A stretch of 64,000 bases of DNA. It comes from a virus. The number at the start of each line of letters is the position of its first letter. The first letter of the stretch is position 1. The notes beneath the pieces are model-generated. The model made no database searches, was not told the DNA's origin, and saw nothing but the letters and a program-made list of their open reading frames with translations. The stretch lies in IMG/VR virus record IMGVR_UViG_3300045988_171772, positions 64,001 through 128,000 of that record; one strand, 5' to 3'. Below are positions 22,647 to 61,293 of this stretch, one piece after another. The translations under genes and the position numbers were made by a program.

Positions 22647-22666
22647 TGCTTATATCCTCCCTTCCA

Positions 22667-42993: not shown

Positions 42994-45900
42994 TTAATAG
43001 GAAGCGATCTTAGCATAAGTAGACCGGAGATTTCCTCTACCGAGACTATCACTATTCAGACCATTATTCAGAGTGGACAGCTTTTGTTTAGCAGAATCTT
43101 TTGCACTCTGCTTTCTCTGGGTGTCACTCTTCTTACCTTCCTTAGAGGCATTCGTATTCTTACCGGTTTCCATCTTCTTGGTAGTACCACCAAGAGCACC
43201 ACCAGAGACCATGTTACCAGTATTGTCACGAATGTCAGTGAGCAGCAGAATCATCTGATCCAGCTTATCACCACTATCAGAAATAGTAGTTTCAGCATCC
43301 TCAGGTCCGCGACCCAGAAGCGGATAATCCTTATAGGCTCCACCCTTAGGCAGCTTCTCCTGAGCTTTCTTTCTTGCAACCTGCTGCTGATAGTAGGCCA
43401 ATTTCTTTTCTTCCATCGTATTGCCAGGCATAGAAGCAAGAATCTTGGGATCAGGTTCTTTATCCATACCCATACCATATCCGACAGAAGTATCGGTGGC
43501 AGTACCATTTGCAGCAGCATTCTCCTCTGCAGCTTCTTCATCAGCCTTGACCTGGTCATAACTCTTACCAGAGATGACAGAATTCATGACACGAGTGCCA
43601 ACCTTATTGAAGATATTACCCACAGAGTTGAAGATTGCATTGAAGAGGTTGGTAGCAGAAGGAGATTCGGATTCACCTTCAGCACCAGTAGTTCCAGTTG
43701 TGGCTCCTGCCGTAGCAGTACCATCTGTAGCACCCGTAGTAGCGCCGGAAGCTCCAGAAGCAGATACCGACATGCCACTAGAGACATTGGGATCCAACTG
43801 TCCAGAAGCACCCTTGCCATCCGGAGTTTCTATAACCTGAGCCCAGTGCATCGGGTTAATAGAACTCGCTGTGGGAGCCCAAGCAGTCTGTGCCGTAGAT
43901 CCTTGTCCATAGGGAGGATTCGGAGCATACGGGTCATTGATAATGATATTGCCATTGGCATCCAGTCCAGTAGCAAGCACGCAGTGAGAACCACCCATTC
44001 CGTACTTGTACATGTTGCTATTATTGCCAACACCGTACATCATAACCATCTTTCTCTGCTTCAGAGCAGAAATAATGGTATCGAGATACTGCGTACCGTC
44101 AACAGTACCAGCGGACTGAGAGCCATTCGCAGGATAACGAGTTACCTTAACGCCAGCCTTCTGCAGGTTGGAGATGGTAGCAGCGTTACCATATTGATTC
44201 AGGAATGTACCAGGGTCAATGGCATTACCAGTAATGGTAGAAGCAGCCATTGTACCAGAGGTATGAACGCATCCAATAGAACCAATAGTTCCTTTATAAG
44301 GAGGCAGGTTCATATTGGAGTACGAGTTACCATTCTGTGAGAAGTAGTAAGCTCCATGCTGAATGGTGGTACCATTATCCTTCACCACATTGGCAGGAGT
44401 CGTACCAGAAGCAGATACTGTGGAGCCTTCGCTTGCCATAGTACCCATTGCATGAGCACCACCCAGTCTCTCCATAGAGTAAGCATGAGTAGCTCCATTC
44501 TGAAGCATACCAGGTGATACCACAGAGGATCCTTCACCATCATCCACGGTATACATACCATCAGGTGTACGACCTGTGACAGTAACGATGTGACCCGCTT
44601 TGGTATAAAGAGAATCACAAGAATTACATCCAGATCCATAACCCATGGATTTACCAGAGACAATGACAGGATTTCCATTATCCAGAGATGCATCCAAAGA
44701 ATCCATCCCGGAGATTTCAGTTCCGGACATACCATATTTACGAGCACCTTCTGTGAAGAGCTTCGCATTGGCACCTCCATCTGTCAACATACCATTTCTT
44801 CTGGCATATCTGCCCACTTCACCAGGATTGGCATTACCGCCAGCTGCATTCACAGCATTCGCCAGTGCAGTAGGTCCACAACCAGAATTGGCCATATTGG
44901 CAGGAGATCCATCCGGAAGAGTACCGAGACTCAAAGAAGCATAAGAAGGATCATCTTGCTTCAGACCACCAGGTCCATAGCCAAGAGCTCCTCCACCATT
45001 TCCAAGAGATGCTCTAGAAGACTGCTTGTTAGCTTCTTTTGCAACGCTCAGAGATGCAGTCATATTGTCTTTCTTGTTTTGCTGATATCTCTTGCTAGAA
45101 GTATCTGTTCCTGATCCATATCCTTCAGTATTAGCAGCAGTGGCGGTTTCTTCGTCCTGCTTCTTATTACCTCCAAATATACCAGAGAACCAGTTACTTA
45201 CAGCCTTACCAGCTCTCTTAGCAGCACCGATTACTCCATTAACGGCTTTACTGCCGATAGTCTGATTCACAATATCATTATATTCGGTAAGAGACAAATC
45301 TTCTTCTGTAAGATTATTATCTTTCAAATATTGCTGATATTCTGCCTCATACTCACTCTGCTTTTGGTCAATGGTCTTAACACCTTTCTTTTCAAGACCA
45401 AAGACTTTGTAGATGAGCTCGTAAATGACTTCGGCGAGTTCTCTCTTGAAATTGGGCAAACCAATAAGCTCACAGATACTAGAAACCAGATCGAATGCAG
45501 GACCGACAAAGGGAAGGTACTCGACAAGAAGGCTGATAATAGCAGATACAGTTCTCATTCCAATATCAACATCGTCTTCGGATATCATGAAAAGATTCGC
45601 AGCATCCAAAGCACCAGAAGCTACTGTAAAGACGCCTGTAATAACTGCACCAGCAGTCTTCAGAGCCTGCCCAGCAGTGCTTGCATTGAATTTTGTGATC
45701 AATTCACTGATCTGTGTAGCAAACTTTGTATTCTTTATTGCGGTCTTCAGATTATTGAAGATTCCAGAAATGAAATCCTTAATCTTCTTAACCAATTCAG
45801 AAGGTTTTACATCTTTCAGAAGTTGTTTAAGAGGACCACAATTTGCAAATTTATCAAGAGCTTCCGTCAGCATATCCAGGAGATTTGTCAGAGACTCCCA

Positions 45901-48900
45901 GACCTTGCTTCCGTTGGTACTTGCCCACTTTGCTGTAGTGAAATCTGCCGCCTTCTTTGTTTTTGTAGCCAAGAATCCTGCGCCTTTTTGAGCCAGGCCA
46001 GTCAGGCCTCTTCCTACAGTGGCAGTACCCTTACCAACAGCTGCAGTTGCTTTACCGAATTTTTTGATAGATTTGACAATCGGAATATGATCGGTTACAA
46101 AATCGACACCTTTTCCTACCCAGGAAAGCGCTTTACCGGCTTTACTACCCTTGACAGCAGCTTTCGCAGCTCCATAAGCGTTCGATGCCTTAACACCGAC
46201 ATCGTGAACGACATCAGCAGCTGTCAAAACTGCCCCACCGGCTTTATTCACAAGAGTACCACCGGCTTTGAAACCAGCTCTTGCTAGATCTCCATCTGTA
46301 CCAGTAACTGCAGTTTGAGCTGCCTTCCTTCTGACAAAATTCGGAATCATCATGCCTCTTTCAGTATTGACGGTAGCAGTAACGACTTCGTTACCATTTT
46401 CGTCAACTCTGGTACCTGCACCGACATAGTCAGGATTCAACTCTTCCATTTCTTCCTTGGTGAATTCTTTAGTGTCTCCACCAAGGACGAATTGACCGAG
46501 GAAATCACCAACCTTATCTCCGATACCTTCAATACCATCCATGATGGCACCACCGATACCTTTTGCAAGAGCACCACCGAGAGAGATAACCGCTTTACCA
46601 AGTACCTCTCCCAAAGTACCGATCAGTTTTCTACCAGTCTCAGAGTTCAGAAGAGCAGCCACAGTGGTAATACCACCAATAGCAAGACCAGCTTTCTTGA
46701 GGATATCCCCAATTCCGCCTTCTTCCTCTTCTTCCTGAGCAACCGCGTCACCTTCAACAGGTTCTGCCTTACCAGGTTCTTCATCTTCTTCACCGGTAGA
46801 ATCCTTCACTTTATCTTTACCCTGAGCCTGAATAGAAGCAGTTTCTTCTGCTTCTCTCGCTCTTCTCTGAGCATCCGCAGCATCTGCTTTGTCCTCATTA
46901 GCCGCAGCAGTCTTTCTTCTATGCTCAGTTTCGGCGATCTCAGCTTTATTTTCTTCTTCTTGCTGCTTAGCTTCTTCAGCCTGATCCTGCATCTTTTGCT
47001 TTTTCTTCTCAATAGCAGCATTGACAGCATTGATGATAGCAGAAGCTTTATCAGAAGCAGTATCAATCAGAGATTCATCCAGAGGAATACCAAGAGTAGC
47101 AGAGATTTGACCCAAAGCAAGAGCAATCTGATTCTTACGAGTCGCTTGTGCTTCTGCTTTTTCTTTCTCTTCTTCTACCTTCTCTGCAGCAATACGGTCA
47201 CGTTCTTGGAGCTCTTTCTTGAAGGCCTCCTGGTTCTTCATCCACTTATCAAAATCTTCTTTATTCTCGATTCTGTTATAAGTTTCATCGATGATGTTAC
47301 CTTCGGCATCCCGTTCAAGATACTGCTCAACGTCTTTCCGTCTCTTTGCATACTCTTTATCAGTCAGATCCTTAGCAGCGTAAGCATCCTTCCGATTATA
47401 TTTACTGAGCACACTATCGAGACGATTTTGTCTCTTACTATTCTGCTTTTCTGCACGATATTTGGCAAATCCAGTCAGGCCAGCAAGAGCTTGCTCTTTA
47501 TTATTAATGAATTTCTGGTAATTCTTTCCGATATACTCATTGAGAGCATTGGGGTCGATCTGACCATTCTCATCTCTCGGAAGAGCATTCCAGGCTTTAT
47601 CCTTGACATTACCGTTTCGATCCTTAGGAAGCAATTCTTCCATAGCAGCTTGTCTTTCCATAGGATCGACACTCTGCATTCTAGACTGAATATCATCCAA
47701 TCTATCTTTCTCATCTTGATACTGAGCTCCATAATAGGATTCAGCACCCTGAGCCATAGAAGATTTAAATGCTCCGATTCTAGCACGAATTCCACCCTTC
47801 TGAGTGACAGCGGATTTCGCACTATCCTTCAGATTTCCTAAGAGACCATGTCTAACATAACCAGCTCTAGCTCCCCAACGAGCATTCCTTCTCGCTCGTC
47901 TCTGACCTCTGAGGTTCTTTAAGAACTCAAGAGGATTCTCTGCATTTCTACTATTCCAGAGATCAGCGATGAGTTGAGTCGGTTTCGCTGCAATCCATGT
48001 AGCAGCTTTAGCAGCAGTCTTCAGTGCGAACGCTCCACCTTTGACAGTGGCACCCAACATAGCACCGGTAATCTTGACAATCCCATTATTGAGAGCCTGC
48101 ATAGGATGGGTAATAATGGAAATCACATTCTTACCAACATTCTGGATGGTTTCAACCATGGACTTTGTCACAGGATTTTTCAGTCCCATGTCTCTGAAGG
48201 CGGCTACAATAGGAGCAAACTGAGCTTTCGCATAGCTTGCAACTTCATTCTTGACAGAGTCAAAAGAAGACTTCAGAAGATTCTTTCCTTCTGTCTGAAG
48301 CATGTTTGTCCACTGACCGACCATACCAGTCTTCTCAACATGGACAACTCCATTTTCATCTACTGTCTTTGATCCAAAGAAGAGTCTCTTGAAATCAAAT
48401 CCAGTAGTAGCGATACCCACAGTAGCACCAAGAATGGCACCACCAATAGGACCACCGGGAAGGAAGAGAGAACCTAAGACTCCACCAATACCTGCGCTCA
48501 TAGCAGTTCTCTTGGTAAAACCTACCTTAGCTTTGATCTTCTGCCACAGATTTGCTGCGATTTCCTTACCATCTGTAAAGACATCTTCCACCGCTTCCGC
48601 AGATTTATTCAGCTCATCAATAGCGATATTGATCGAGGCCTTGGTATCTTTCTCTCTATTCTTATCCTCGGATCTTCTTCTAGAAGCTTCGTTGGTATTG
48701 GATCCAGGTCTTCTTGCATTCTGGTTATTGGCTCTACGAGCAGGAGCACCACCGAGTCTCTCACCATTACCAAGAGCTCCATTATCATTATTGGTATTAT
48801 CAGAAGGAGCATTCGGATCCTTACCAGTCATTACCTGAGTGGATTTATCTCTCACCTTCTGCTTGAAGGTACGAGTATCCTTAGGCTTCTTCTTGATTTC

Positions 48901-51318
48901 ACCTTGACTATTCAGAATAGACTGATCATTCTGCCACTGGGTATTTCCATCTCTGGGGATTCCTTGTTTATCCATGGGATAAATATCAGATCCACCAGGA
49001 GGTTGCAGATTGGCATCTCGATCGGTACCTTTAACGACTCTATCATCATGATCAATCGGCTTGATGATATATTTCTTACCATCCAGGACGATATTTCTTC
49101 TCTTTACGACACGAAGGCATCCAGGTTTACCATATCGATACTTCAATACAGCCAAACCGAATAATCCATCTTTGTCACCAGATTTATCAGCGGTGATAAA
49201 ATCGTATTGATCCGGATTGTAGGCATTATTCCGCATGATGTTCATCACATCAGCGACAGTCAGATGATCATATTCATACTTACTGACATTCTTCTTGAAG
49301 GAGCTTGCAACTCCCAAGACACCACCAGTAGTATCAACTGTATCATATCCTGAAATAAGACCGATCAATCCCAGACCAGCAGCTTCCACTTTAGAAGCAG
49401 CTTTGTTTCTCGTGTAAGTGGTACCGACACCTTCACTAGCAGCATATTTGATATTTTCGATATATCGATTCTTCTGCTTATTAGAGGCAAAGACAGTACC
49501 CTTTGCACGATCCATCAGCCTCTTGGTTTCTTCTGCAGCTTCCTCAGCTTTCTTCTTGTCTCTCTCCTGTTTTCTAGAGAGATCAGTAGCAGTATAAGAA
49601 GTACCAAGATCTTCCGGGCTAAATCCACCTTTGATAAAACCAAACTGGTTGGTTTCTCTCCGGTTAAATAGCTCGGATTCAGATTCTGTGAGTTCCATCT
49701 GCATCATATACTGACGCAGTTTTGTCACAGTTCCTTTGAAATAAATGACCAACTGAGAAATCTCAAATGGATTAAATCCCAGTTTCTCGAGTTCTTTACC
49801 ATAGGCTCTAGCAGCTTGGGTAAGATTCTTCTCTCCTTCGAGAGTTTTCTCACCATAGATCATAGGTTGCAAATGCTTCCACATGATCTTCTTTGCTTCA
49901 TCCTGTAAAGCCTCGTCATCCTGGAATTTACTTTCAAAGAAAATATTCGATTCAGCAGAAGCTCCACGGAATGCATCTGATGTGCGAGCTCTCAATCCTT
50001 CTCGAATCTGTTTCTTGTCCTTGAATGTCCCGGCGTCATAATCATAGAAGACGGGTTCCTTAGATCCTTTCCTCTTGGGAATATTCGAAGTATTCGCTTC
50101 GATCATTGCCAAGTAATGAGGAATGACTACCTCAAGAGCTCTCTTGGATTTACCATCCCAAGGAACTGCTCCCTTATAGTATTTCCCTAACTGGAAAGAA
50201 TCTTGCTTTCTTGCTCCAGCTCCTAACAGCTGACCAAGCATTCCTTTGATTCCGGATTCATTCCGCATGTCAGAAAGAGTCGATAATCCGCCCATCAAAG
50301 CCTGAGGAAGCAGATCATCGACTTTTGTGATAGCCTTCTGAATCTTCTTCGGAATCAATTTCTTCATTGCAGCATTCATGAGCATCTGAGTAGGCCGAAT
50401 CATAGATTTCGGTCCACCCATACCGCCCATCATATTTCCCATCATGGAACCCATACCCAGCATCATCTGCAGTTCAGACAGAGACGAGCTATTCTGGAAA
50501 TTCTCTTTGACGACGGAAATGTAGGAGGGAAGATCGAAAGAACCACCTGCCAGGAATGCATCCATAGCAGGAGTCTTACCCTTCTTCTTGGAGGGCTTAT
50601 ACATCTCCATCTGGACTTTCATGAAGGCATGAGCTGACTTCAAATAATCCAGATGTGCCTGGTTTACCTTACTCTGGTTATCATTCATGAATTTCACGAT
50701 ATTAACCAGGTTGGTATTGATCTGATCCAGGCGTTTATTTGTCTCTGTCAGAGAAGCACCCAGTTTATTGACTGCAATCATTCCGATGTTATTCGTCGTA
50801 TTCATGATTGCTTTGGCAGTATTTACCTGGGCCATCATCTGAGCCTTAGAGGATCTCTCTAATGTCTCAGCGATTCGATTGCTTCCTTCCAGGCTAACTT
50901 TTGCAGTTGCTTTCGCATCTGTGCTAAGATTTAATTTACGAACTTCCACACCACTCTCATTTTGATCTTCTGAGGTGGTGTAGTCACTTGAATCGAAATC
51001 AAAATCGTCACTACCAAAAAGATCACCAAAGTCATCCTTGGGAGTGGCGAAGTTACCGGTTTTGATATCATTGATCGTACCTTCAATGATATCATTGGCC
51101 TGCTTTTGAAGTTCTGTATAGTTGAGAGCACGATCGACTTGCTTACCTTTGGCACGATAGTCGCTCATGAAATCTCTCAGCTTATAGATTTCATCCGCAG
51201 CATCTTCTGTAATCTTGGTAGTATTGGGTGCTACCTCGGTCAGTACGTCCTTGGCAGAGTAACCAATCGACTTACCAAAATTAGCAAGCCAAGATGCCAC
51301 GCTATTTAAACGAGCCAA
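42994..51318 (-). CDS. giant tape-measure-like virion protein with two C-terminal papain-like cysteine peptidase domains
   Basis: 2774-aa ORF with a TTG start after GGTGAAG. Contains long charged coiled coils and Gly-zipper hydrophobic segments. Cys/His pairs: NSGCGPTALA...AGHIVTVTG (about 44540-44920) and GSIGCVHTSG...GGSHCVLATG (about 43930-44300). Confidence 0.8.
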   Translation of the reverse strand: MARLNSVASWLANFGKSIGYSAKDVLTEVAPNTTKITEDAADEIYKLRDFMSDYRAKGKQVDRALNYTELQKQANDIIEGTINDIKTGNFATPKDDFGDLFGSDDFDFDSSDYTTSEDQNESGVEVRKLNLSTDAKATAKVSLEGSNRIAETLERSSKAQMMAQVNTAKAIMNTTNNIGMIAVNKLGASLTETNKRLDQINTNLVNIVKFMNDNQSKVNQAHLDYLKSAHAFMKVQMEMYKPSKKKGKTPAMDAFLAGGSFDLPSYISVVKENFQNSSSLSELQMMLGMGSMMGNMMGGMGGPKSMIRPTQMLMNAAMKKLIPKKIQKAITKVDDLLPQALMGGLSTLSDMRNESGIKGMLGQLLGAGARKQDSFQLGKYYKGAVPWDGKSKRALEVVIPHYLAMIEANTSNIPKRKGSKEPVFYDYDAGTFKDKKQIREGLRARTSDAFRGASAESNIFFESKFQDDEALQDEAKKIMWKHLQPMIYGEKTLEGEKNLTQAARAYGKELEKLGFNPFEISQLVIYFKGTVTKLRQYMMQMELTESESELFNRRETNQFGFIKGGFSPEDLGTSYTATDLSRKQERDKKKAEEAAEETKRLMDRAKGTVFASNKQKNRYIENIKYAASEGVGTTYTRNKAASKVEAAGLGLIGLISGYDTVDTTGGVLGVASSFKKNVSKYEYDHLTVADVMNIMRNNAYNPDQYDFITADKSGDKDGLFGLAVLKYRYGKPGCLRVVKRRNIVLDGKKYIIKPIDHDDRVVKGTDRDANLQPPGGSDIYPMDKQGIPRDGNTQWQNDQSILNSQGEIKKKPKDTRTFKQKVRDKSTQVMTGKDPNAPSDNTNNDNGALGNGERLGGAPARRANNQNARRPGSNTNEASRRRSEDKNREKDTKASINIAIDELNKSAEAVEDVFTDGKEIAANLWQKIKAKVGFTKRTAMSAGIGGVLGSLFLPGGPIGGAILGATVGIATTGFDFKRLFFGSKTVDENGVVHVEKTGMVGQWTNMLQTEGKNLLKSSFDSVKNEVASYAKAQFAPIVAAFRDMGLKNPVTKSMVETIQNVGKNVISIITHPMQALNNGIVKITGAMLGATVKGGAFALKTAAKAATWIAAKPTQLIADLWNSRNAENPLEFLKNLRGQRRARRNARWGARAGYVRHGLLGNLKDSAKSAVTQKGGIRARIGAFKSSMAQGAESYYGAQYQDEKDRLDDIQSRMQSVDPMERQAAMEELLPKDRNGNVKDKAWNALPRDENGQIDPNALNEYIGKNYQKFINNKEQALAGLTGFAKYRAEKQNSKRQNRLDSVLSKYNRKDAYAAKDLTDKEYAKRRKDVEQYLERDAEGNIIDETYNRIENKEDFDKWMKNQEAFKKELQERDRIAAEKVEEEKEKAEAQATRKNQIALALGQISATLGIPLDESLIDTASDKASAIINAVNAAIEKKKQKMQDQAEEAKQQEEENKAEIAETEHRRKTAAANEDKADAADAQRRAREAEETASIQAQGKDKVKDSTGEEDEEPGKAEPVEGDAVAQEEEEEGGIGDILKKAGLAIGGITTVAALLNSETGRKLIGTLGEVLGKAVISLGGALAKGIGGAIMDGIEGIGDKVGDFLGQFVLGGDTKEFTKEEMEELNPDYVGAGTRVDENGNEVVTATVNTERGMMIPNFVRRKAAQTAVTGTDGDLARAGFKAGGTLVNKAGGAVLTAADVVHDVGVKASNAYGAAKAAVKGSKAGKALSWVGKGVDFVTDHIPIVKSIKKFGKATAAVGKGTATVGRGLTGLAQKGAGFLATKTKKAADFTTAKWASTNGSKVWESLTNLLDMLTEALDKFANCGPLKQLLKDVKPSELVKKIKDFISGIFNNLKTAIKNTKFATQISELITKFNASTAGQALKTAGAVITGVFTVASGALDAANLFMISEDDVDIGMRTVSAIISLLVEYLPFVGPAFDLVSSICELIGLPNFKRELAEVIYELIYKVFGLEKKGVKTIDQKQSEYEAEYQQYLKDNNLTEEDLSLTEYNDIVNQTIGSKAVNGVIGAAKRAGKAVSNWFSGIFGGNKKQDEETATAANTEGYGSGTDTSSKRYQQNKKDNMTASLSVAKEANKQSSRASLGNGGGALGYGPGGLKQDDPSYASLSLGTLPDGSPANMANSGCGPTALANAVNAAGGNANPGEVGRYARRNGMLTDGGANAKLFTEGARKYGMSGTEISGMDSLDASLDNGNPVIVSGKSMGYGSGCNSCDSLYTKAGHIVTVTGRTPDGMYTVDDGEGSSVVSPGMLQNGATHAYSMERLGGAHAMGTMASEGSTVSASGTTPANVVKDNGTTIQHGAYYFSQNGNSYSNMNLPPYKGTIGSIGCVHTSGTMAASTITGNAIDPGTFLNQYGNAATISNLQKAGVKVTRYPANGSQSAGTVDGTQYLDTIISALKQRKMVMMYGVGNNSNMYKYGMGGSHCVLATGLDANGNIIINDPYAPNPPYGQGSTAQTAWAPTASSINPMHWAQVIETPDGKGASGQLDPNVSSGMSVSASGASGATTGATDGTATAGATTGTTGAEGESESPSATNLFNAIFNSVGNIFNKVGTRVMNSVISGKSYDQVKADEEAAEENAAANGTATDTSVGYGMGMDKEPDPKILASMPGNTMEEKKLAYYQQQVARKKAQEKLPKGGAYKDYPLLGRGPEDAETTISDSGDKLDQMILLLTDIRDNTGNMVSGGALGGTTKKMETGKNTNASKEGKKSDTQRKQSAKDSAKQKLSTLNNGLNSDSLGRGNLRSTYAKIASY

Positions 51319-51352
51319 TTATGCTTCACCACGCTTTCTTTGGCTTTAAGCA

Positions 51353-51365
51353 TTAAAAAGCTGTT
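51353..51365 (-). promoter_or_regulatory. AACA-N6-TAA motif (candidate late-type promoter)
   Basis: Minus strand reads ATTTTAACAGCTTTTTAATGC, 34 nt upstream of the TTG at 51318. Confidence 0.45.
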
Positions 51366-51401
51366 AAAATAGCGCATTTTGAGGGCCTAGGAGCTTATTA
51401 T

Positions 51402-51469
51402 GAGAAATTTAAATGAGGATACCCAGATATGTCAGTGTATGACATCGGATATCCTCATTTAAATTTCTC
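51402..51469. repeat. nested long hairpin H1
   Basis: 20-bp perfect arms GAGAAATTTAAATGAGGATA (51402-51421) and TATCCTCATTTAAATTTCTC (51450-51469), with an apical ATGTCA/TGACAT stem. No T-run follows. Confidence 0.85.
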
Positions 51470-52885
51470 ACAATCAAATCCATCAAGAGAACCTACTCCT
51501 ACAATCATCCCGCCTATCTATATCAATGGGAAGATCTTCTTCCTTCTCCTATCTACTATCTAGATGATCAGGATACTCAAAGAGATTCTCTTCTGTATGA
51601 TAATCCTATAGAATTACTATCTTCTCCTCTATATAGAAGATCTGTCTTCTGGTACCATGAATTTCTATAGTATCTATTTCATTCTCGTTGACTTCCTATA
51701 GAAAAATACAGGGTCTATTTCCAAAATCCTTACTAGAGATACATCCTTACTCATGAAGGAGTATCCTCCATCTCTATAAAGAGTCTCTTCCTTTCCTCTG
51801 ATATCCATCTATAAGAAATATACAAACTTTCTATCCAGAGATTCTATTTCTATATCAATCCTTCCAGATTCTAGATCCAGGTAAGGGTGTCAGTGCTCAT
51901 GAAATATGTCTCTTTATCAATAGTCTGATATCGATCTCTATCTATAAATATTCCACTTTCGAATATCTCTATTAGATATCATCCTTCATACGCATTCTAT
52001 CTATATCCTAGAATTCGAGTGCCACAACAAACGATTCCTATTCTATAAGAAGAATTTGTATCTGGATGAATCTATCTATCGATATTCTAATCATAGGATC
52101 TCTATAAGATAAAAAATCAGTATTCTCGTTCTATTCATATCGATCCATATCTCATTTCTTAATCACACTATCTATCACTAGAATCCTTCTTGATTCATAA
52201 GAGACAGAATATCCTTCTAGAAGAATTTCTATATCCTCATAGAAGATAAGAGATTCCATTCTGATTCTCTCTATAAAGAAGATTCCACTCTTTCATTTTG
52301 GAATCTATCTCTATTGGAGATTTCTTCATAGTCTCTATACTTCTCTATCCTCAGTCTAAGAGAATGCCTTTGATTCTATAGAAATCTGATAGTAGATTCC
52401 TTCTCTATCTATAAGAATTGATTCAAGCAATCTATCGATATCAAATTCCAAGTCTCTCTTCTCATCCTTCTTCTAGTATAATAGAAAAGAATTCAGGTTC
52501 TCTTCTGCTATCCATAGAATCAGATTCAGAAAGTAGGATTTGTATTCTATTAGCATTTCTTCAATTGTGAGAATCTAAGAAATATTTTGTATATAAAAAA
52601 GACCAGGTATAATACTTAGTCTACATCTGAGAGGAATTGATCTAAGAAATCTATCAATTTGTATTCTATCCAACCAGATAGAGTACCACTCTATGATCAG
52701 ATAGAATAGTACCTCTCAGAAGGAAGGTGTAGATTCTTCATCTATCTTATTAGACTTCTCCTACTGATCGATCCACCTTCTGGAATTATCTCAGATAATC
52801 TCTTATATAGAGCTGAGACAATCGACACCATGAGTACCACTCATATGTCAATCGATTATGATTATGTCTCTCTTTAAGGAAAAAT
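51470..52885. other. 1.4-kb ORF-free, G-poor (plus strand), CTAT-rich tract
   Basis: No ORF of 60 aa or more in any frame. Hand counts give about 5-12% G against about 25% C on the plus strand. Dozens of CTATA/CTATC/TCTATAAG words with no regular period. Confidence 0.8.
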
Positions 52886-52930
52886 AAAGGATACCAGAAA
52901 TACAGAGATTCCCAGTATCCTTTATTTTTC
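52886..52930. terminator. bidirectional intrinsic terminator
   Basis: AAAGGATAC (52886-52894) pairs with GTATCCTTT (52915-52923), flanked by an A-run and a T-run. Confidence 0.65.
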
Positions 52931-52942
52931 CTTATTTAGACT

Positions 52943-53137
52943 TCATCGATCTTTACGTACCACATATTTCAGAGGATTCATACGGATAAAAGGATTGTCC
53001 GTATAAATCACATAATGGGTACTATGTAACCCTCTTTGTGCCTTCATTACATAAGGGCGATTTTTATAATCCGGAAAGTTTTGAATCAGATCTTCAGGCA
53101 TCTCGTTCATGAAATGAACTTCCAAAGTCATATTCAT
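52943..53137 (-). CDS. hypothetical small protein
   Basis: 64-aa ORF with SD TAGGAGGG. Confidence 0.5.
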   Translation of the reverse strand: MNMTLEVHFMNEMPEDLIQNFPDYKNRPYVMKAQRGLHSTHYVIYTDNPFIRMNPLKYVVRKDR

Positions 53138-53152: not shown

Positions 53153-53197
53153 ATATAAAAAAGAGAGTACCCATGCTGGATACATAGGTACTCTCTA
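53153..53197 (-). terminator. intrinsic terminator
   Basis: AGAGAGTAC (53162-53170) pairs with GTACTCTCT (53189-53197), with a T-run on the minus strand (rc of 53153-53161). Confidence 0.7.
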
Positions 53198-53915: not shown

Positions 53916-55211
53916 TCATTGTGTAACAGGACCGGGCGATTCTCCAGACTGAGTTTCTTCACTCTGGAGCCTCTGATAATCCGTCGGAGCCCGATTCACT
54001 TCCTCACGGTTGTAGGCATTGATCGGAGTTCCCGGATTGGTAGGATACGGAGTCTCTTCCTTGGGAGTCTGCTCATGGGCAGCTTCCTGCTCACGAGTCC
54101 TCTGAAGAATCTCTGCAGTGGTCGGCACTCCTGCGATCTTAGGATCATTCGGAGTATACGGAACCCCATTCATCATGTCCGCAATGTCACCGAACTGGGG
54201 GCCATTATAGGGTTCCTGAGGATCCTGACCATAATAAGGACGACCAGGACGAAGATTCGGAGTCTGATCCTCATATTCATCCTCGCCATCGAAATCGTCG
54301 ATGCGATCTTCCAGATCTCCAACCTTACGGCCAAGAGCCTGAATCATCTGAAGGATCTTTTCCTCTCCGGGACTAACCTGGATCTTCTGGGCTGCCTGAG
54401 GAGGATTTGCATACATGGGATTGGACTGGGGATTCTGACGATTCTGATTCATGATCATCTGAGCCAGAGTGTTGATGCTCTTCTCGATGTTCTCGAACCG
54501 TTCGTCATACTCATTCCCAGAGTCATCCTCACCGAAGTCGAGATTGTCCATATCATAGTCGTCCATATCGAAGGGACGCTGACGACGAGGACGGAATTCT
54601 TCAAAGTCGAAGTTATACGGATCCTCTTCCATATCCCAGGAGACATTCCCGATCGTACCACGATCAGCAAAGTTCTTGAGAGCAGCAAAGCGATCCTTAT
54701 AATCATCGACATCCGAACTCCGGATATTCAGATTATCCTGAAGACCTTCGATGGCATCCCGATACCGCTTATTCAGCCACTTCATCTCATCCTGAGACTT
54801 GTTGATCCGCTTATTGTGCTTAGACTTCTGATCGACACGAAGAGTACCACCAGTGGAAGCCAGCTTCTTCTGAGCTTTCTTGATGACCTTCTTCAGCTGA
54901 TCCTTTCTCTCCTGGACATCGACCAGAAGAGTCATGACCTCATAATAGGTATCATCACTCAGGAGAAGCCAAAGCTCTTTGATGCCGATCTCGTTAAAGA
55001 CCTGGACCACCTGGGACATCGTCTTGCAAGAGGCAGACCTTCTCGCAAAAGATTTGATCCCATACAGATCACGGAATACTCGATCCACATATTGAATTCG
55101 AGTGCAGGCCCCAGTCCGATCACAGCAAAGTTTCCGGATCCGATTCAGCATCGTCCGAATCAACCTTGCTGCTTTGGATCTTGGGGTCGTCGTTTTCCTA
55201 GAATCACTCAA
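53916..55211 (-). CDS. hypothetical protein with Pro/Gln-rich C-terminus
   Basis: 431-aa ORF with a TTG start 8 nt after AAGGAGGG. Confidence 0.7.
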   Translation of the reverse strand: MSDSRKTTTPRSKAARLIRTMLNRIRKLCCDRTGACTRIQYVDRVFRDLYGIKSFARRSASCKTMSQVVQVFNEIGIKELWLLLSDDTYYEVMTLLVDVQERKDQLKKVIKKAQKKLASTGGTLRVDQKSKHNKRINKSQDEMKWLNKRYRDAIEGLQDNLNIRSSDVDDYKDRFAALKNFADRGTIGNVSWDMEEDPYNFDFEEFRPRRQRPFDMDDYDMDNLDFGEDDSGNEYDERFENIEKSINTLAQMIMNQNRQNPQSNPMYANPPQAAQKIQVSPGEEKILQMIQALGRKVGDLEDRIDDFDGEDEYEDQTPNLRPGRPYYGQDPQEPYNGPQFGDIADMMNGVPYTPNDPKIAGVPTTAEILQRTREQEAAHEQTPKEETPYPTNPGTPINAYNREEVNRAPTDYQRLQSEETQSGESPGPVTQ

Positions 55212-55232
55212 TGGAGTTTCCCTCCTTTCTTC

Positions 55233-55835
55233 TTAGTATTCATCATCACCGATATCGATGAAGTCATCGGGGATCTCGATATCATCCATATCGTCTCCGA
55301 TCATCTCATCCAACTCATCGGGATGACGTTTCTTCTCTTTCTTTGGTTTGTTATCACCCAGAACGGTATTGGCCGGCGTTGCAATCTCCTTAAAGGGATC
55401 ACCAATGCCATGCTTGTCCAGGAATGTATCGCCGATCCGACTAATGTCCCTGGGAGAAAGCTCCCCAACATCTTTCAGCTGCTCAGCAACGAAATCCCAG
55501 ACATTCTTCGCAATGACGGAATCTTTGGTCTTGCCAATATCCTTCATCACGATTCCAATCGCAGCCCCTCTCATCGAATTCAGACGGCGGACAGACTGCG
55601 GATAGTCCTTGCATTTCTCGACCACTTCATCGATCTGGTCATTGATCGCCTTCTTATCATAGAAGGTAATCGGATCCCAACCAATAGCAGTCTCGAAAGC
55701 TTCACTCATTTCAACGGGATCATCCTTCGGGGTGGTAATGGCATAGAGAGCATCGAAGTTTTCCTTGAAGCTCTCCTCATCGTGCACTGCCTGGACAGCA
55801 GTGATTTGATCAAGAAATTCAGATAAGCTTTTCAT
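55233..55835 (-). CDS. hypothetical acidic protein
   Basis: ATG 55835 (MKSLSEF) lies 8 nt after GGAGG. 200 aa. Confidence 0.7.
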   Translation of the reverse strand: MKSLSEFLDQITAVQAVHDEESFKENFDALYAITTPKDDPVEMSEAFETAIGWDPITFYDKKAINDQIDEVVEKCKDYPQSVRRLNSMRGAAIGIVMKDIGKTKDSVIAKNVWDFVAEQLKDVGELSPRDISRIGDTFLDKHGIGDPFKEIATPANTVLGDNKPKKEKKRHPDELDEMIGDDMDDIEIPDDFIDIGDDEY

Positions 55836-55971
55836 AAAAGGCACCTCCGTGATTGCAGTAGAAGAATGTAGTTATTCTTCATCACTTGTGTGTTATACCC
55901 TTTATGACATTTAAAGTATTTCTGATGCTGGTCCGTCGATCTATCCAACACCAGTTTCTCATGAATCCAAT

Positions 55972-57068: not shown

Positions 57069-57105
57069 AGTTTAGCCTATACACACTAGATATGAGGTGA
57101 CGCAA

Positions 57106-60100
57106 ATGCTTTTTACTGCAGTTGCCAAGAATCGAGTGTATAAGAATCAAGGGATCATTCCTTTTCCCAAAGGTGCTCCTGTAGGTAGAGGAAATCTCTT
57201 ATTTTTGTGCGCTCCAGATGAAAATTCCTCATTCTCTTTGATCAAAAATCCCACTATGGGTTTGAGTGATGCCCGCTATATTCGATATACCGCCGATACA
57301 CGGTATGTCGGTAAAGTAGGAAATCGCAATATCAAAGAAAATCGTCTGAAGGTATTGAAAGATACTTTCACAGAGGAATTTTCTAATTCTGAAATGAATC
57401 TCATTCTCCCCGCTAAGCTGGAGACTGTGATCAAAACCAATTACAATCTCATCTATGACTTTAGTCATTGGAATCGAATCTTCTTCACCTATCGGAGAAC
57501 TGGTAAGGTAGAATTCCTTTGTCAGAAATACATCGAATTTCTGATGAAGGCTTTCAATCGTTCTGAGTTCTCCTCTTATAAGAAGACACTTGTCCTTCCT
57601 ATCAAGGATTGGATGAGTGCTTCTTCTACCCATGAGATTGGTATCACGAAAGCGTATATGGATACCCCGATTTCTATTCTATGTGCCTGTGCCTATCGTT
57701 TTTCTAATCTCATCAAGATGGTGGAGAATGTCGAAATCTATCTGGTAGATCCTACCAATGGAGAATTTCTTCTCTTAGATTCCTCTTTCTTCAATAAGAA
57801 GATGTATCCGAAACTGAAGAATCTCCTGGGTAGAATGACTGCTGTGAAATTCTCTAAAGCCGAAGAGGAAGTATCTGACTCCGAAGGTAATATCAAGGAT
57901 ACCGATATTGCCAAATTGGATAATCAGGTCAAGAATGAGGTTAAGGAGATTCGCCATAAAGAGAAGGTCAAAGAGATTACCAATGTAATCACCGTTGACC
58001 CCTCGAATGAGAATCCCAAACCCGTTCAGTCTTCTTCTCCTGCACCTGCTCCTGTATCTGCAGAGAAGCCTACCTTTGTCAAACCCGAAAAGAAGACGAA
58101 GAAGGAATCTGCAGAGGATGATCTCATTGACTTCTTACTCAGTGAGGATGAAAAGGTAGATCAGACAGTAGCAGACTCTGCAGAAGATACAGAGCCTGAG
58201 ACCAATCCCACGGATGAAGATTCTGAAGAGGATAATATCGATAATGATATTGAATCTGAGGTTGACTCAGTCGTCTATGATTCTGATGAGGATGCTTCCG
58301 AAGAAGATATCATTGATACAGCTGAAAAGAGAGTGAAAGAGAAGGTACTGATCACCAAATTCAAACCTGACTTTGATGAAAAGACCACGGCTCGTATTCG
58401 CTCTCTTATGGATACACAGGATTCTATCATGAATCAGACTGTGCAAGAAATGAAGAAGAAAATCGTTCCTCCTGCAAATCTTGCACCGTATATCAATACG
58501 ATGAATCCTACCATCCAGAAGCCTAAGGCTAAGAATTTCTATAAGCAATACAATGAAACCACTTTTGAGACGGATATCGATAAAGCGGTTGCTAGTCTTG
58601 CTAAGGCAGATTATCCTCTCTTTATCCAAAAGAAAGAAGTAGAAGATACGTCCGATCTCATGAATATGAAGAAGACGTACACTTACACCATGGCGGATAA
58701 AGATGGGCATACCCATATCATTGCCTTTGATGTACCTATCTTCTTGGAGGATCGATATATCTTCCTTGGTGGTAATAAGAAGGTCATTGAGAATCAGATG
58801 CTGATTCTTCCTATTCTCAAATCTGGTCCTGATGAAGTGCAGCTCGTTACTTGGTATAATAAGATTATCATGAAGCGTAGCAGCATGAAGATCGATCAGA
58901 AATCTGAGATCATCAAGAAGTATATTCTGAATCCTCAGAATACTTCTAGATTCAAGGTAAGAATCGGTAGCTGCCAGATGAAAAATAAAGGTACCGATAC
59001 TTCTCTGGACTATGATAACCTGGCTAAGAATATTACCGAATGCACCATCTATGGGAATCGGTTTATCTTCGATACTGCCTATCTTCTGGAGGAGTATAAC
59101 AAGGTACTATCTAAAAATGGTAAGAAACCTATTTCTTCTACCTATGATGCGAATGATGGACTCCTGGTTGGATATAATACCCAGTCTGGCGATCCTATCT
59201 ATGCAAAAGAGGAGAATGGAAAGGGCGTCAATGATATCATTTATAATCTCTTCAAACCCCAGGATATTGCAATTCTTAAAAAGTATACCGTGACTCCTAG
59301 AAGTCTGATGTATGCTCGAGGGAAGATGTACAACCACATGATTCCTATGGTTGGATTCATGTGCTTCTGTGTTGGTTTGACAGAGGTTATGAATAGAGCC
59401 AATATCAAGTATCAGGTTATTGAACCCAATACTAGGTATGATGTCTTGAATCAGAGTGTCATCAAATTCAAAGACAAATGGCTCCTTTGGGATCATTATC
59501 CCTTACATGCATCTTTGATCATGAATGGTCTGTATCAGTATGACTTCAGTAACTATACCCTTGCGGAAGCAGATGGTAAGGAACTGTGGAATGATATCAT
59601 GGCCAATACCTACAAATCTACTCAGGCACTTTTCGTATTGGAGCAATTCAAAGACTTCTTCATTGATCCTATCAGTGCAGAAGTATTGCGGGATATGAAT
59701 ATGCCTACTGATATCGTAGGTCTGATCATTGCTGCTTGTATTCTTCTGAATAACTCTTCTTCGGAGGATATTACAGATCCGAAGAACTTCCGTATTAGAT
59801 CCAATGAGATCTTTGTCCAGTTTATCTATACGGCAGTCGTCAGAGGATATCTGGAATATCGGAAGTCTATCTATAAGAAGAGACCTGTGAAGGTTACTGT
59901 CGATAGAAGCGTGGTATCGAAATCGATCTATGGATCTACAGACAAGACTGGGCATAAACTTCCTTCTTGTGCCATGATCGAAGATTCTTCTATTCTGAAT
60001 CCTGTATTGGAGATGGAAAAGAAAGGATCAGTCTCCTTCAAGGGTCCTTCTGGTATCGGATTGGAGCAGGCTCTTACATTGCCTAAGAGATCTTTCAATC

Positions 60101-61293
60101 CTGGTATGACTGGTACCATTGCGATCTCTACTTCTCCTGATAGAAATGTCGGTGTTTCTAGACAGCTTACACTGGATCCGAACATCGTCTCTGTCAGAGG
60201 ATACATTGGAGATCATGATGAGGATGCGATCCGGGATATGAAGGGAGCCAATCTCTTCTCTCCTGCTGAATTGCTTTCTCCTCCTGGTGCTATGCATGAT
60301 GATAGTCAGCGTACGGCTATGGCCTATAAGCAGACAAAGTACATGGTCTTGACGGAGGGATCTTCTCCTGTCTTGATGGGTAATAAGGTAGAAGCTGCAT
60401 TGCCCTACTACCTGTCTAGAGACTACACAGTCGTAGCACAAGAAGATGGTAAAGTGGCTGCCATTGAGAATGATCAGGTCATCATTCAGTACAAGAATGG
60501 TCGATATGATTCCTTCTCTCTGGTACCGAAACAGCAAAAGAACTCTGCGGGTGGTTTCTACATCGAAGCGTCTTTCCAGACAGATCTCAAAGTTGGAGAT
60601 AAAGTCAAGAAAGGTGAAGTCGTTGCCTATAACCCCAGAGCCTTTACCAAGAATAAAGATGATCTGAGTGCTTCTATGAATATCGGTGTCCTTTGTAAGA
60701 TGGCAATCTGTCCTACATTTGACGAATATGAAGACTCTGCTCCTATCACGACTGAGCTGTCTAAGAGACTTGCTACTGTCATGGTACATGAGCAGAGAGT
60801 AGTATTGTCTAAGGACGCCGTAGTCTATATGATGTCTAAGATTGGTCAGCATGTCGAAGTTGGTGATTCTCTCATTGAGTATGATAACTCCAATGAAGAT
60901 CCCACTATGGCAGAATTGTGGGCCAATATGGCAGAGACATATGGAGAAGCTCTTACAGATGTCGCCATTACCAAATTCAAGTCTGAATTCTCTGGTGAGA
61001 TTACCAATATCAAGATCTACTCTGCTGTGGATGGAGAAGAACTCTCTGACAAGTCTCTGAGAAAGATCGTCCAAGATTATTGGAATACCATCAAGAAGAG
61101 AAATAAGACTCTGGAAAAATACCGGAATCCCGATGATCCTAAGTTCATGCCTTGTGGACAGCAGATCACAGAAATTCCTGGTAAGGTAGAAGCAAAGTTT
61201 GGGAAAATCCTCGGCGAAAATGTCGGGGATGGTGTCCTCTTCTGCTTCTATATCAAACACAAAGATATCGTCAAGAAAGGCGATAAAGTCACT
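57106..61293 (+). CDS. multisubunit RNA polymerase beta-like subunit, exon 1
   Basis: ATG 57106 follows GAGGTGA. SFKGPSGIGLEQA...TGTIAISTSPDRNVGV resembles GPGGLTRERA...CPIETPEGPNIGL. Ends in ...KKGDKVT at 61293, the first half of the GDK..G.KG motif. Confidence 0.85.

Follow-up and report, generated by a model that had tools for sequence, protein, structure and literature searches.

In the Bacillus jumbo phages AR9 and PBS1, the tail tape measure gene (g204 in AR9) is preceded by a small virion-side gene and an intergenic gap and is followed by genes for a virion protein and RusA, an order that was also found at the locus described here. At the end of the AR9 gap there is likewise a terminator hairpin, and an AACA-N6-TA late promoter comes after it (PMC5312081). 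However, it lacks the long spacer and the structured RNA module reported below (best model score 9 bits), and the AR9 proteins are only about 26-30% identical to those of this phage. The sequence-only reading of the DNA had called a non-coding block of this size unusual for a phage, which is borne out by the AR9 gap, of only 240 nt at the same position. Among structured RNAs, GOLLD, ROOL and similar Rfam RNAs are likewise phage-borne, multi-helix and found by covariation; compared with GOLLD and ROOL, the module is smaller (about 200 nt), is not located beside tRNA genes, has a long unconstrained tail and is without an Rfam match. The put RNA of phage HK022 is a cis-acting, two-hairpin processive antitermination element that makes RNA polymerase resist downstream terminators. 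The module resembles it in placing two hairpins upstream of a terminator in what would be a nascent phage transcript, but is larger and has an additional helix (P1), a probable pseudoknot and extra hairpins; moreover, the giant gene that follows has its own conserved promoter and antitermination is therefore not needed for its expression. Tail-assembly chaperones (G/GT) are produced by a programmed -1 frameshift between the tube and tape-measure genes, and a probably pseudoknotted RNA after a small gene and immediately upstream of a tape-measure gene recalls this arrangement. A frameshift extension from the small gene was considered and rejected, as the alternative frames close between -26 and +85 nt from the stop codon in eight of nine lineages, and no conserved alternative-frame extension was detected across the nine.

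The DNA analyzed is a 64-kb stretch of one IMG/VR record (the window), and the source phage is an uncultured AR9-like jumbo phage. Its multisubunit RNA polymerase (RNAP) beta gene is about 29% identical to those of jumbo phages with dU-containing DNA, and no DNA similarity to deposited phages, near or distant, was found. The phage is common in human and pig gut metagenomes among the contigs listed, with the product of the 64-aa gene that borders the tract matched exactly in 315 blocks of a public assembly collection; IMG/VR protein-pattern searches and an exact DNA string search gave no matches. The host is probably a Firmicute, as judged from the strong GGAGG-type ribosome-binding sites in the window. 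An Rfam 15 scan of the whole window at gathering score returned only a group I intron and a tRNA-Thr, both outside the tract. Besides the group I intron carried by this genome, relatives carry an HNH ORF nearby.

The tract lies between a late operon, composed of genes for 203-aa, 431-aa, 188-aa and 64-aa proteins, and a tape-measure-like giant gene (Table 1). With 1,624 nt between the gene ends, the gene-free interval exceeds every other intergenic region of the window (the next largest is 558 nt). It is not an assembly artefact, since the tract recurs in nine further independent assemblies of the window's own lineage (W; L001-L008 and L108). An ORF-free gap of 0.84-1.6 kb is kept at the same place in all nine lineages compared, even though the neighboring 431-aa protein is only 42-48% identical across them. 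Orthologs of the small upstream gene were likewise found in all nine lineages (69-83 aa outside the window, sharing 40-57% identity with the 64-aa protein of the window). Searches of Pfam and PHROG gave no family for the small protein, which rules it out as a recognizable RNA binder. The 431-aa and 188-aa neighbors were considered as sheath and tube, a suggestion dropped when no PDB, phage, Pfam or PHROG matches were obtained; the consensus of the 431-aa protein resembles a coiled coil with a disordered tail. The giant gene is linked to AR9 g204 ('tail tape measure protein') by a weak tblastn match together with the common gene order, in which it is followed by a virion protein and then RusA.

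Table 1. Features of the ORF-free tract and its borders (window coordinates; the minus strand is the sense strand)
Feature	Coordinates	Strand	Details
Small protein gene	52943..53137	-	64 aa; last gene of the late operon, directly 5′ of the tract
T1 hairpin	52886..52930	-	Terminator-like; A-run and U-run arms; confined to the W lineage
Structured RNA module	52646..52865	-	About 200-220 nt; covariance model and covariation; sense-5′ end of the tract
P1, 5′ strand (AAUCGAU)	52851..52857	-	Pairs with 52767-52773 (GAUCGAU)
Hairpin 1 apex (AGUGGUACU)	52833..52841	-	GGU loop at 52836-52838
Pseudoknot strand (GAAGGUG), probable	52774..52780	-	Pairs with CACCUUC at 52723-52729, crossing P1
Hairpin 2 apex (AGUGGUACU)	52682..52690	-	GGU loop at 52685-52687
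Body	51482..52645	-	About 1.16 kb; ORF-free, AT-rich spacer; sense strand C-poor; carries the ATAGA/CTAT excess
H1 hairpin	51399..51481	-	Long; 3-nt bulge within about 28 predicted pairs; 6-bp apical stem
AR9-type late promoter (TTAACA-GCTTTT-TA)	51354..51367	-	Predicted start A at 51354
Leader and ribosome-binding site of the giant gene (AGAAAGCGUGGUGAA)	51319..51353	-	Nearly invariant across lineages; identity 0.96 in group A
Giant gene	42994..51318	-	2,774 aa; tape-measure-like, with a Peptidase_C39_2 domain (Pfam, 7e-15)

The tract had first drawn attention for its lack of ORFs, its G-depletion and its saturation with CTAT words. No ORF of at least 60 aa was found between 51470 and 52885, as had been stated; the longest were 50 aa (52418-52570, plus strand) and 44 aa. 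Many long overlapping ORFs on opposite strands had raised the possibility of stop-codon recoding (TAG to an amino acid). TAA, TAG and TGA were all detected in the six frames, at least six of each per frame over 51300-53000, and therefore no single stop-codon reassignment opens a frame; the diversity of the body also equals that of third-codon positions. The plus strand of 51471-52885 is composed of A.315, C.207, G.123 and T.355, compared with about.29/.215/.20/.29 (A/C/G/T) in the rest of the window. The direction of the skew was thus as noted from the sequence, while the figures given for it (5-12% G and about 25% C per 60-nt line) were slightly too extreme, the measured ranges being 3-22% G (mean 12%) and 10-32% C (mean 21%). 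Similarly, equal G and C in the flanking DNA, as claimed, was confirmed for the 53-54 kb side only; the giant gene also has more C than G on the plus strand, at a GC skew of -0.1 to -0.27. The word saturation was readily reproduced (CTAT 45, TCTAT 36, TCTATA 15 and TCTATC 13 occurrences in the tract), with TCTAT enriched 11-fold over the rest of the window when both strands were counted. Word spacing was irregular, typically 23-42 nt, and there was neither a tandem repeat nor any regularly spaced identical repeat of the kind that makes a CRISPR-like repeat-spacer array. Overall, the tract is a composite, with a conserved RNA module at its upstream end and a remainder that is mostly drifting spacer.

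The module was delineated by a covariance model (R1), which was built from four genomes other than the window and matched the window at 79 bits (E-value 1e-22) and gave full-length, sense-strand matches in every lineage. Its parts are P1, hairpin 1, hairpin A, hairpin B, a long hairpin 2 and a probable pseudoknot, and it starts 20-95 nt past the stop codon of the small gene across the lineages. In an alignment fitted to the model, and including a few spurious partial rows, 92% of the cells were paired, compared with 69% in shuffled and about 35% in slid controls. Both sides were changed in 56 of the 67 module pairs, although many of these compensatory changes fall along the division between lineage groups, such that the independent events are fewer than the cells. 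The alignment across all lineages was model-guided, as a MAFFT version put hairpin 1 out of register. Within the helices, G·U appositions outnumbered A·C by 50 to 1 (P = 5e-14); this tolerance of G·U and not of A·C fits an RNA of one strand (minus) rather than duplex DNA or cruciforms. Within the lineage, diversity (pi) was 0.017 in the module vs 0.041 in the body, and identity of the module in group A was 0.91.

Individual helices were found to be conserved in pairing while differing in sequence. The stem of hairpin 1 covaries among ATGAGT/ACTCAT, TATAAGT/ACTTATA, CTGGT/ACCAG and TCTGGGA/TCCCAGA, and hairpin 2 forms an extended stem of 15-20 bp in every lineage, differing in sequence and, in L011 and L016, including G·U pairs. 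P1 has three doubly changed pairs (AUCGAU/AUCGAU, AUCAGUA/UACUGAU and UCAGUG/CGCUGA). The two hairpin apices are identical, and AGTGGTACT occurs only twice in the 64 kb, both times as these apices, with 0.16 occurrences expected. The helix that crosses P1 was 100% paired in the nine lineages, with a change of G-C to A-U in four of the nine rows (groups B and C); pairing of the pseudoknot was 97.6% compared with 36-53% in slid controls, which points to a probable pseudoknot. Part of this helix is a Shine-Dalgarno-like string, AGAAGGUGGAUC, which was considered as a ribosome-binding stabilizer. In groups B and C the string reads GAAGAU and its pairing partner is altered to match; therefore, it is the helix that is conserved and not complementarity to 16S rRNA.

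No match to the module was found among the 4,227 models of Rfam 15 at gathering score over the whole window, and permissive Rfam scans of the tract, L009 and L018 gave only generic hairpin matches far below threshold. Likewise, no comparable structured RNA was found in the literature for AR9-like jumbo phages with multisubunit RNAP. When JGI metagenomes, IMG/VR and GTDB genomes were scanned for the two-loop DNA pattern, nearly all matches were due to chance, as Ser-Gly-Thr repeats can also be encoded by AGTGGTACT; screening of these matches by covariance model or nhmmer left only L108, another contig of the W lineage. Thus, comparison with related phages, which had been proposed as a check, revealed a module that is conserved and strongly covarying in every lineage of the clade, where it is, by these comparative signals, a previously undescribed element selected as a minus-strand RNA. 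Of the purine-rich minus-strand non-coding RNA that was one of the original suggestions, the sense-5′ 220 nt form a conserved structure, for which the covariation and the surplus of G·U make sense on the minus strand alone, whereas the purine-rich, word-rich body shows no constraint.

The body was found to evolve much as unselected sequence would. Its pi of 0.041 compares with 0.043-0.063 at codon position 3, its identity of 0.69 in group A (16% gaps) with 0.68-0.72 at codon position 3, and it could not be aligned between lineage groups. Folding was ordinary on both strands (MFE z about 0), and comparison of six-frame body translations between lineages revealed neither similarity nor a residual ORF. 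A gene hidden in the tract is likewise not supported. The mutation spectrum of the phage is AT-biased and predicts A.30, C.13, G.15 and T.43, a composition near that of the bodies in the other lineages; the low GC content and C-poor sense strand follow from this spectrum. ATAGA occurs 32 times on the sense strand of the body compared with 11.9 expected from dinucleotide-preserving shuffles (z 5.6), with an orientation bias (32 sense, 7 antisense) and a weak extended consensus (T at -5, A at +6). This excess over the dinucleotide expectation was essentially limited to the W lineage, with a mild echo in L018, and the counts varied from 27 to 32 among near-identical genomes. ATAGA sites were not significantly more conserved than other body sites (pi 0.032 vs 0.042). 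A 33-nt Fourier peak was not significant after multiple testing, autocorrelation was detected at lags 2, 4 and 6 and at no long lag, and the indels were located in homopolymers; neither a degenerate tandem array of about 30 nt nor TAGA slippage was supported as the origin of the words by these spacing, indel and autocorrelation analyses. The saturation with ATAGA/CTAT thus appears to be a short-period, low-complexity peculiarity of one lineage and not a functional array, and the body appears to be a spacer free to drift in sequence. Nonetheless, all nine lineages keep at least 0.5 kb of it (0.5-1.2 kb of spacer after the module), while a truly functionless body would be expected to have been deleted in some lineage. 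This retention could point to some constraint, whether on length, composition or transcription, that is invisible to tests of sequence conservation.

Hairpins bound the tract on both sides. T1 has a 22-bp stem whose 3′ arm ends in UUUAUUUUU, and this stem with its U-run makes it a predicted terminator. The sense RNA folds more stably (-23.4 kcal/mol, z -7.2) than the antisense (-14.6 kcal/mol), and diversity within the lineage is low (pi 0.009). T1 is absent from L009-L020, where the module follows the stop codon of the small gene with no terminator-like hairpin between. At the other end, H1 is also more stable as sense RNA (-45.5 kcal/mol, z -9.7, vs -36.3 for antisense) and in the W lineage is followed by AUAAUAAG, without a U-run; at its position the aligned lineages L009, L011, L013 and L015 carry a stem and sense-strand U-run terminator, such that the position is conserved and the sequence is not. 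Alignment of T1 and H1 as related repeats was unconvincing. Beyond H1 lies the late promoter of the giant gene, which conforms to the AR9 late consensus AACA-(6N)-TA/G, the last base being the start site (PMC5312081). It is positioned 36 nt upstream of the start codon, has a pi of 0.005 and, with the gaps as delimited here, is present in eight of nine and missing from that of L016. The same motif precedes six other genes in the window by 28-40 nt, and all seven of these clear late promoters have AACA.

Considering these results together, it is fairly probable that the tract is a non-coding interval between the late operon and the giant gene, made of a selected, pseudoknotted RNA of about 220 nt and a drifting spacer of about 1.16 kb, with the module transcribed by read-through. 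RNA polymerase leaving the upstream late operon would read into the tract, unimpeded in the other lineages, which have no terminator before the module, and in the W lineage only if T1 were to leak. The nascent RNA would then fold into the module and act as an RNA element, most likely as a platform for a dimeric or duplicated partner or as a 3′-end stability or processing element of the operon mRNA, and transcription would end at H1 or the terminator at its position, just before the giant gene's own late promoter. Both the read-through and this role of the module are inferred, transcription of the tract being suggested by RNA-level covariation; in the W lineage T1 stands between the operon and the module, with no consensus promoter between T1 and the module, which counts against this scheme. 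We also entertain, more tentatively, that the module heads a transcript representing a new class of phage long non-coding RNA in a widespread clade of human and pig gut jumbo phages of about 255 kb, in which the two identical GGU hairpins of a pseudoknotted 5′ domain of about 200 nt would bind a dimeric or duplicated partner and the length or transcription of the tail, and not its sequence, would matter. Candidates for this partner include the phage RNA polymerase, a host factor and a phage protein of tail assembly or regulation. The RNA occupies the very site at which tape-measure chaperones are encoded in other tailed phages, and it could help to control or assemble the 2,774-aa tape-measure protein.

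Phage genomes are densely coding, and it is rare for deeply diverged lineages all to keep a gap of 0.8-1.6 kb. The analysis separates eye-catching, apparently neutral words and skew from a selected RNA of about 220 nt that has no Rfam counterpart, and the locus offers a clean test case for why neutral-looking spacer stays. If the RNA is functional, the AR9-like jumbo phages with multisubunit RNAP would gain a structured RNA element. The two identical hairpin loops and probable pseudoknot of the module provide a defined target for pull-down and mutational work.

Other explanations were weighed against read-through of an operon-borne module followed by spacer. The tract might instead be an independent long non-coding RNA gene of about 0.85-1.5 kb, starting at the first P1 base from its own weak, variant late promoter (nACA-N6-TA) and ending at H1 or the terminator at that position, an arrangement that we regard as rather unlikely. 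A motif directly upstream of P1, ATACATCTATyTAATC (in W, GACATAATCATAATC), is common to all lineages and is one mismatch from AACA-N6-TA with its TA at the P1 start, and in the W lineage T1 would insulate such a unit from the upstream operon while H1 closed it. AR9 late promoters with one or two non-consensus bases are reported in vivo (PMC5312081); however, substitutions at -11 abolish transcription in vitro (PMC5449584), and the variant differs from all seven clear late promoters of the window in lacking AACA. In L009 and L018 it would also need a 7-nt spacing, and as the motif occurs nowhere else, a promoter class is not demonstrable and the motif may be part of the RNA. Homing endonuclease genes and introns are common in these phages, and the body could be a decayed inserted gene or mobile element (e.g., a free-standing homing endonuclease gene), kept since deletions are rare. 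The neutral rate of evolution and many indels of the body, the intron and nearby HNH ORF mentioned above and the ability of AR9 to manage with a 240-nt gap all agree with decay. Counter to this, six-frame translation revealed no similarity, in what was an inter-lineage comparison only, and no residual ORF, and retention of at least 0.5 kb in nine deeply diverged lineages is hard to square with pure decay; we therefore consider this origin unlikely.

Functions assigned to the words or to the DNA itself fared less well. The CTAT/ATAGA words might form an array of DNA or RNA sites bound by a phage or host protein or the phage RNAP (as a sponge, decoy or nucleoprotein platform). A protein- or RNAP-binding array had been suggested with reference to their likeness to early promoters, and TATAGA does occur at the start region of these promoters. 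The excess of ATAGA, its orientation bias and weak extended consensus, and the 23-42 nt spacing would suit an array, but seven of the eight other lineages have no such excess (L018 has the mild echo), the sites are not more conserved in a body that drifts at the synonymous-site rate, and periodicity is not significant. The AT-rich early-promoter core, ATATATTAT, was absent from 51319-52942 at one mismatch or fewer, and at up to two mismatches gave only scattered, non-conserved matches in the tract. We therefore judge an array of this kind to be very unlikely. A replication origin, partition site or packaging/terminal-repeat junction, also among the initial suggestions, would be in keeping with an AT-rich tract that is the largest non-coding block in the window and has hairpins at both ends. 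Such a DNA-level element is nevertheless highly improbable: the 50 to 1 preponderance of G·U over A·C fits a one-strand RNA, the body is unconstrained and evolves neutrally, neither iterons nor tandem repeats were found (the only recurring unit is a 5-nt word, and the repeat families are short and 70-88% alike), no DnaA-like boxes were detected between 46.3 and 56.7 kb, and cumulative GC skew has no inflection at the tract. Packaging termini are further disfavored by the internal position of the locus, at quite different offsets, in five contigs of 226-266 kb, and none of the contigs listed ends there. Finally, exposure of UGGU at both hairpin apices recalls the T-box discriminator, in which the bases UGGN pair with NCCA (PMC7778990), such that two U-GGU-A loops might pair with the ACCA-3′ ends of uncharged tRNAs in what is probably a Firmicute host. 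We give this tRNA-binding role almost no credence, since every other defining feature failed: no Rfam T-box match was obtained at E-values up to 10 in the window and up to 1 in L009 and L018, GGU lies in an apical triloop and not in a 7-nt bulge, hairpin 1 of L018 has A-GGU-U, and Stem I, a specifier and a directly downstream regulated gene are all missing, the element being followed by 0.5-1.2 kb of spacer.

Early-type promoters were found elsewhere in the window, at about seven good sites (e.g., 2374, 17423, 19581 and 62460), each defined by the ATATATTAT core with a start site about 6 nt downstream. In AR9, the non-virion RNA polymerase requires template-strand deoxyuridines at late promoters (PMC5449584). 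The presence of both early and late motifs of the AR9 type hints that this phage has an AR9-like transcription system and, possibly, uracil-containing DNA.

The ORF-free tract upstream of the giant tape-measure-like gene was found to be a real feature. Its value lies in a new structured RNA motif (the module), located in a conserved non-coding slot ahead of that gene in a widespread, uncultured gut jumbo phage; the conspicuous properties of the tract, its words and its skew, are largely neutral. The absence of ORFs claimed in the sequence-only reading was borne out: the longest inside the tract are 50 and 44 aa, and TAA, TAG and TGA are each present in all six frames, so that no gene is rescued by stop-codon reassignment. 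At 1624 nt, the full gap between gene ends is the window's largest intergenic region (next, 558 nt). Plus-strand composition was A.315, C.207, G.123, T.355 in the tract and about.29/.215/.20/.29 (A/C/G/T) in the rest of the window; G made up 3 to 22% of individual 60-nt lines, and the G depletion thus held in direction, although the G and C values first put on it were slightly too extreme. Saturation with CTAT words was confirmed (CTAT 45 times; TCTAT 36 times, an 11-fold enrichment relative to the remainder of the window with both strands counted), and the bounding hairpins T1 and H1 are real.

Features of the gap, its surroundings and the promoter-like sites
Feature	Position	Strand	Remark
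Full gap	51319-52942		between gene ends
ORF-free tract	51471-52885	-	between late operon and giant gene
T1, terminator-like hairpin	52930-52886	-	only in window's lineage
Conserved module	52865-52646	-	structured RNA
Body	52645-51482	-	spacer, drifting as judged by divergence
H1, hairpin	51481-51399	-	stem-plus-U-run terminator at same position elsewhere
Late promoter of giant gene, TTTTAACAGCTTnTTAATGC	36 nt before start codon	-	exact AACA-N6-TA fit
Early-type sites tTCTATATATTAT-N6-A/G, about seven	2374, 2738, 12550, 17423, 19581, 62460 (+); 26530 (-)	+/-	motif match
Late-type sites aAAACAnnnnnnTAa (aAAACA-N6-TA), seven	upstream of 17347, 24757, 34484, 36241, 42883, 51318, 57097		motif match
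Giant gene	42994-51318	-	2774 aa
U-run terminator-like hairpin	53162-53196	-	between 188-aa and 64-aa genes
431-aa protein	53916-55211	-	
RNAP beta ORF	57097-61320		PHROG 3148, E 2e-133
Group I intron	61280-61624	+	Rfam, 75 bits
Second poorly coding stretch	11523-12609		~1.1 kb; ORFs 59-60 aa at most; GC 0.34-0.38

No deposited phage matched the window at the DNA level. One ORF encodes a phage multisubunit RNA polymerase (RNAP) beta subunit, with its nearest relatives (~29% identical) in Staphylococcus, Listeria, Bacillus (AR9/PBS1) and Yersinia phiR1-37 jumbo phages. The giant protein carries a Peptidase_C39_2 domain and weakly matches the AR9 'tail tape measure protein' g204, and the order g204 (tape measure), virion protein, RusA is common to AR9 and the window. 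AR9 early promoters read AAATATATATTAT-(6N)-G and late promoters AACA-(6N)-TA/G (PMC5312081); the seven late-type sites of the window sit 28-40 nt 5′ of gene starts, including those of the giant gene and the RNAP gene. In its transcription signals the window is that of an AR9-like jumbo phage, and these motifs hint at virion and non-virion RNA polymerases of the AR9 type, and perhaps at uracil-containing DNA.

The gene immediately preceding the tract encodes a 64-aa protein that has an exact copy in 315 assembly-collection blocks; among the matches listed, the contigs derive from gut samples of humans and pigs, with sizes including 226-266 kb. Further assemblies of the window's own (W) lineage, L001-L008 and the JGI contig L108, are 94-99% identical to it across the region, and all carry the tract. 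Eight further lineages were reached through homologs of the neighbouring 431-aa protein (42-48% identical), and are treated as groups A (L009, L011, L013, L020), B (L015, L016, L019) and C (L018). All eight have the order 183-aa, 44X-aa, 188-aa and 69-83-aa genes, ORF-free gap (839-969 nt) and giant gene, whereas AR9 has only 240 nt at the equivalent position, which accommodate a terminator plus a late promoter. All nine lineages keep 0.5 kb or more of spacer under no sequence constraint. Gap and module are kept in all lineages, but nothing in the body aligns between lineage groups. A packaging or terminal-repeat junction is not supported: in five of the largest contigs the locus is internal and lies at widely differing positions, evidence against a fixed end of the genome at this place.

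Both bounding hairpins were predicted to fold more stably on the sense (minus) strand than on the antisense strand (T1, -23.4 vs -14.6 kcal/mol; H1, -45.5 vs -36.3 kcal/mol). Outside the W lineage the small gene leads to the module without an intervening terminator, and in L009, L011, L013 and L015, which were aligned, the terminator at the H1 position differs in sequence. The nearly invariant TTTTAACAGCTTnTTAATGC lies downstream of H1, and a conserved leader with the ribosome-binding site comes next; the tract is thus not the leader of the giant gene, which is served by a late promoter of its own. With the additional hairpin ahead of it, the small gene is flanked on both sides by terminator-like hairpins in the W lineage, implying leaky terminators or attenuation in the late operon.

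Within the module, two AGTGGTACT boxes, the only such sites in 64 kb, were recognized by eye as hairpin tips whose stems differ among lineages (ATGAGT/ACTCAT, TATAAGT/ACTTATA, CTGGT/ACCAG, and TCTGGGA/TCCCAGA). A covariance model built on group A alone gave a full-length sense-strand match in every lineage (window, 79 bits, E 1e-22; L018, 40 bits; group B, 19-25 bits), and the module is single copy in the window. In the model-guided alignment, where the fit was to the model itself and a few partial rows are spurious, standard pairs occupied 92.1% of cells vs 69.4% shuffled and 34-41% with slid partners, 56/67 pairs had both-sided changes, and the covariation score was 0.386 vs 0.126 shuffled and ~0.06 slid; several compensatory changes coincide with the lineage-group split, so independent events are fewer than cells. 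The helices of nine clean rows held 476 Watson-Crick, 50 G·U and 1 A·C pairs (binomial p 5e-14); since G·U is tolerated and A·C nearly absent, the structure acts as sense-strand RNA and not as duplex DNA or a cruciform. The long-range helix P1 (AUCGAU/AUCGAU, AUCAGUA/UACUGAU, or UCAGUG/CGCUGA) and a helix crossing it (GAAGGU/ACCUUC; GAAGAU/AUCUUC in groups B and C) were assessed on an ungapped, motif-anchored alignment and were jointly 97.6% paired vs 36-53% slid, the crossing implying a pseudoknot. No Rfam 15 family matched the module from three lineages at permissive thresholds, and no copies were found in AR9, GTDB genome representatives or IMG/VR. These comparisons show, at the sequence level, a sense-strand RNA structure under selection. 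The suggestion of a purine-rich minus-strand non-coding RNA accordingly survives for the module, on covariation and G·U excess, but not for the drifting body.

We propose that polymerase from the upstream late operon would run on into the gap, that the module may fold in the nascent RNA as a protein-binding or RNA-stability/processing element, its two identical loops suggesting a dimeric partner, and that transcription would end ahead of the giant gene's promoter. Transcription could alternatively start at an nACA-N6-TA just upstream of P1, which is conserved; however, this motif was found nowhere else, and -11 substitutions abolish the activity of AR9 late promoters in vitro (PMC5449584). Other roles for the module were also considered: neither a frameshift signal nor a T-box-like tRNA binder fitted when tested, and an SD-like stabiliser was rejected, as the helix is conserved and the SD complementarity is not.

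Among nine W-lineage genomes, pi was 0.041 in the body, 0.043-0.063 at third-codon positions of four flanking genes, 0.017 in the module, 0.009 in T1 and 0.005 in the late promoter plus leader. In group A, which is more diverged, mean pairwise identity was 0.688 in the body (gaps 15.7%), 0.675-0.716 at third-codon positions, 0.913 in the module and 0.959 in the promoter plus leader. Six-frame translations of the bodies shared no similarity, and body folding energies were ordinary on both strands (z about 0). On this divergence, the body appears to be drifting. Polarised body polymorphisms per base were C>T 0.116 and G>A 0.112 vs T>C 0.036 and A>G 0.056; the implied equilibrium (A.30, C.13, G.15, T.43) is close to the non-W bodies (about A.34, C.12, G.16, T.37), and therefore low GC and sense-strand C<G are the expected yield of neutral drift. 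By analogy with AR9, dU in the DNA may be a cause of this bias, as deaminated cytosine would pass as a normal base.

ATAGA was found 32 times in the W-lineage body vs 11.9 expected from dinucleotide composition (z 5.6), with a mild echo in L018 (6 vs 1.4) and no excess in the other seven lineages. Its count ranges from 27 to 32 among near-identical genomes, and the extended consensus around it is weak. A binding array echoing the early promoters is not supported: the early-promoter core ATATATTAT is absent from the tract, and conservation at ATAGA sites does not clearly exceed that in the rest of the body (pi 0.032 vs 0.042). The words are irregular, as described earlier; Tandem Repeats Finder reported nothing in the tract, and a 33-nt Fourier peak was not significant after multiple testing. 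Autocorrelation was significant at lags 2, 4 and 6 only, and length polymorphisms lie in homopolymer runs, not TAGA units. Lineage-specific, short-period cryptic simplicity is the description that suits the words best.

Several other features of the window were observed. DnaA-box-like 9-mers (TTATCCACA, <=1 mismatch) number 40 vs 20.6 in shuffles and are spread through coding DNA, with none in 46.3-56.7 kb; this twofold excess is probably a codon or composition effect. In the 431-aa protein the N-terminal half is conserved, basic and coiled-coil-like, and the long tail is variable and rich in Pro/Asp/Glu/Gln; no match was found in PDB, Pfam, PHROGs or deposited phages. Shadow ORFs of up to 635 aa, spanning two genes, lie opposite real genes (53919-55826 (+), 22625-24646 +/22667-24757 -, and many others); gene calls in related contigs take the minus-strand genes at 53916-55844, and the shadow ORFs probably reflect codon and purine bias rather than true gene overlap. 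The group I intron coincides with the end of the called RNAP beta ORF, and at ~61250-61700 L004 and L005 fall to 0-55% identity in genomes otherwise 97-99% identical; an HNH_3 ORF adjoins the RNAP gene in L004, and the RNAP ORF of L005 is 1466 aa vs 1404, suggesting an intron/homing-endonuclease presence/absence polymorphism. The giant gene is mosaic, with blocks at 46000-50500 and 43100-44400 of 35-80% identity (97-99% elsewhere) and genome groupings that change from block to block, a pattern suggestive of recombinational exchange or diversifying selection acting on the central and C-terminal regions of the gene.
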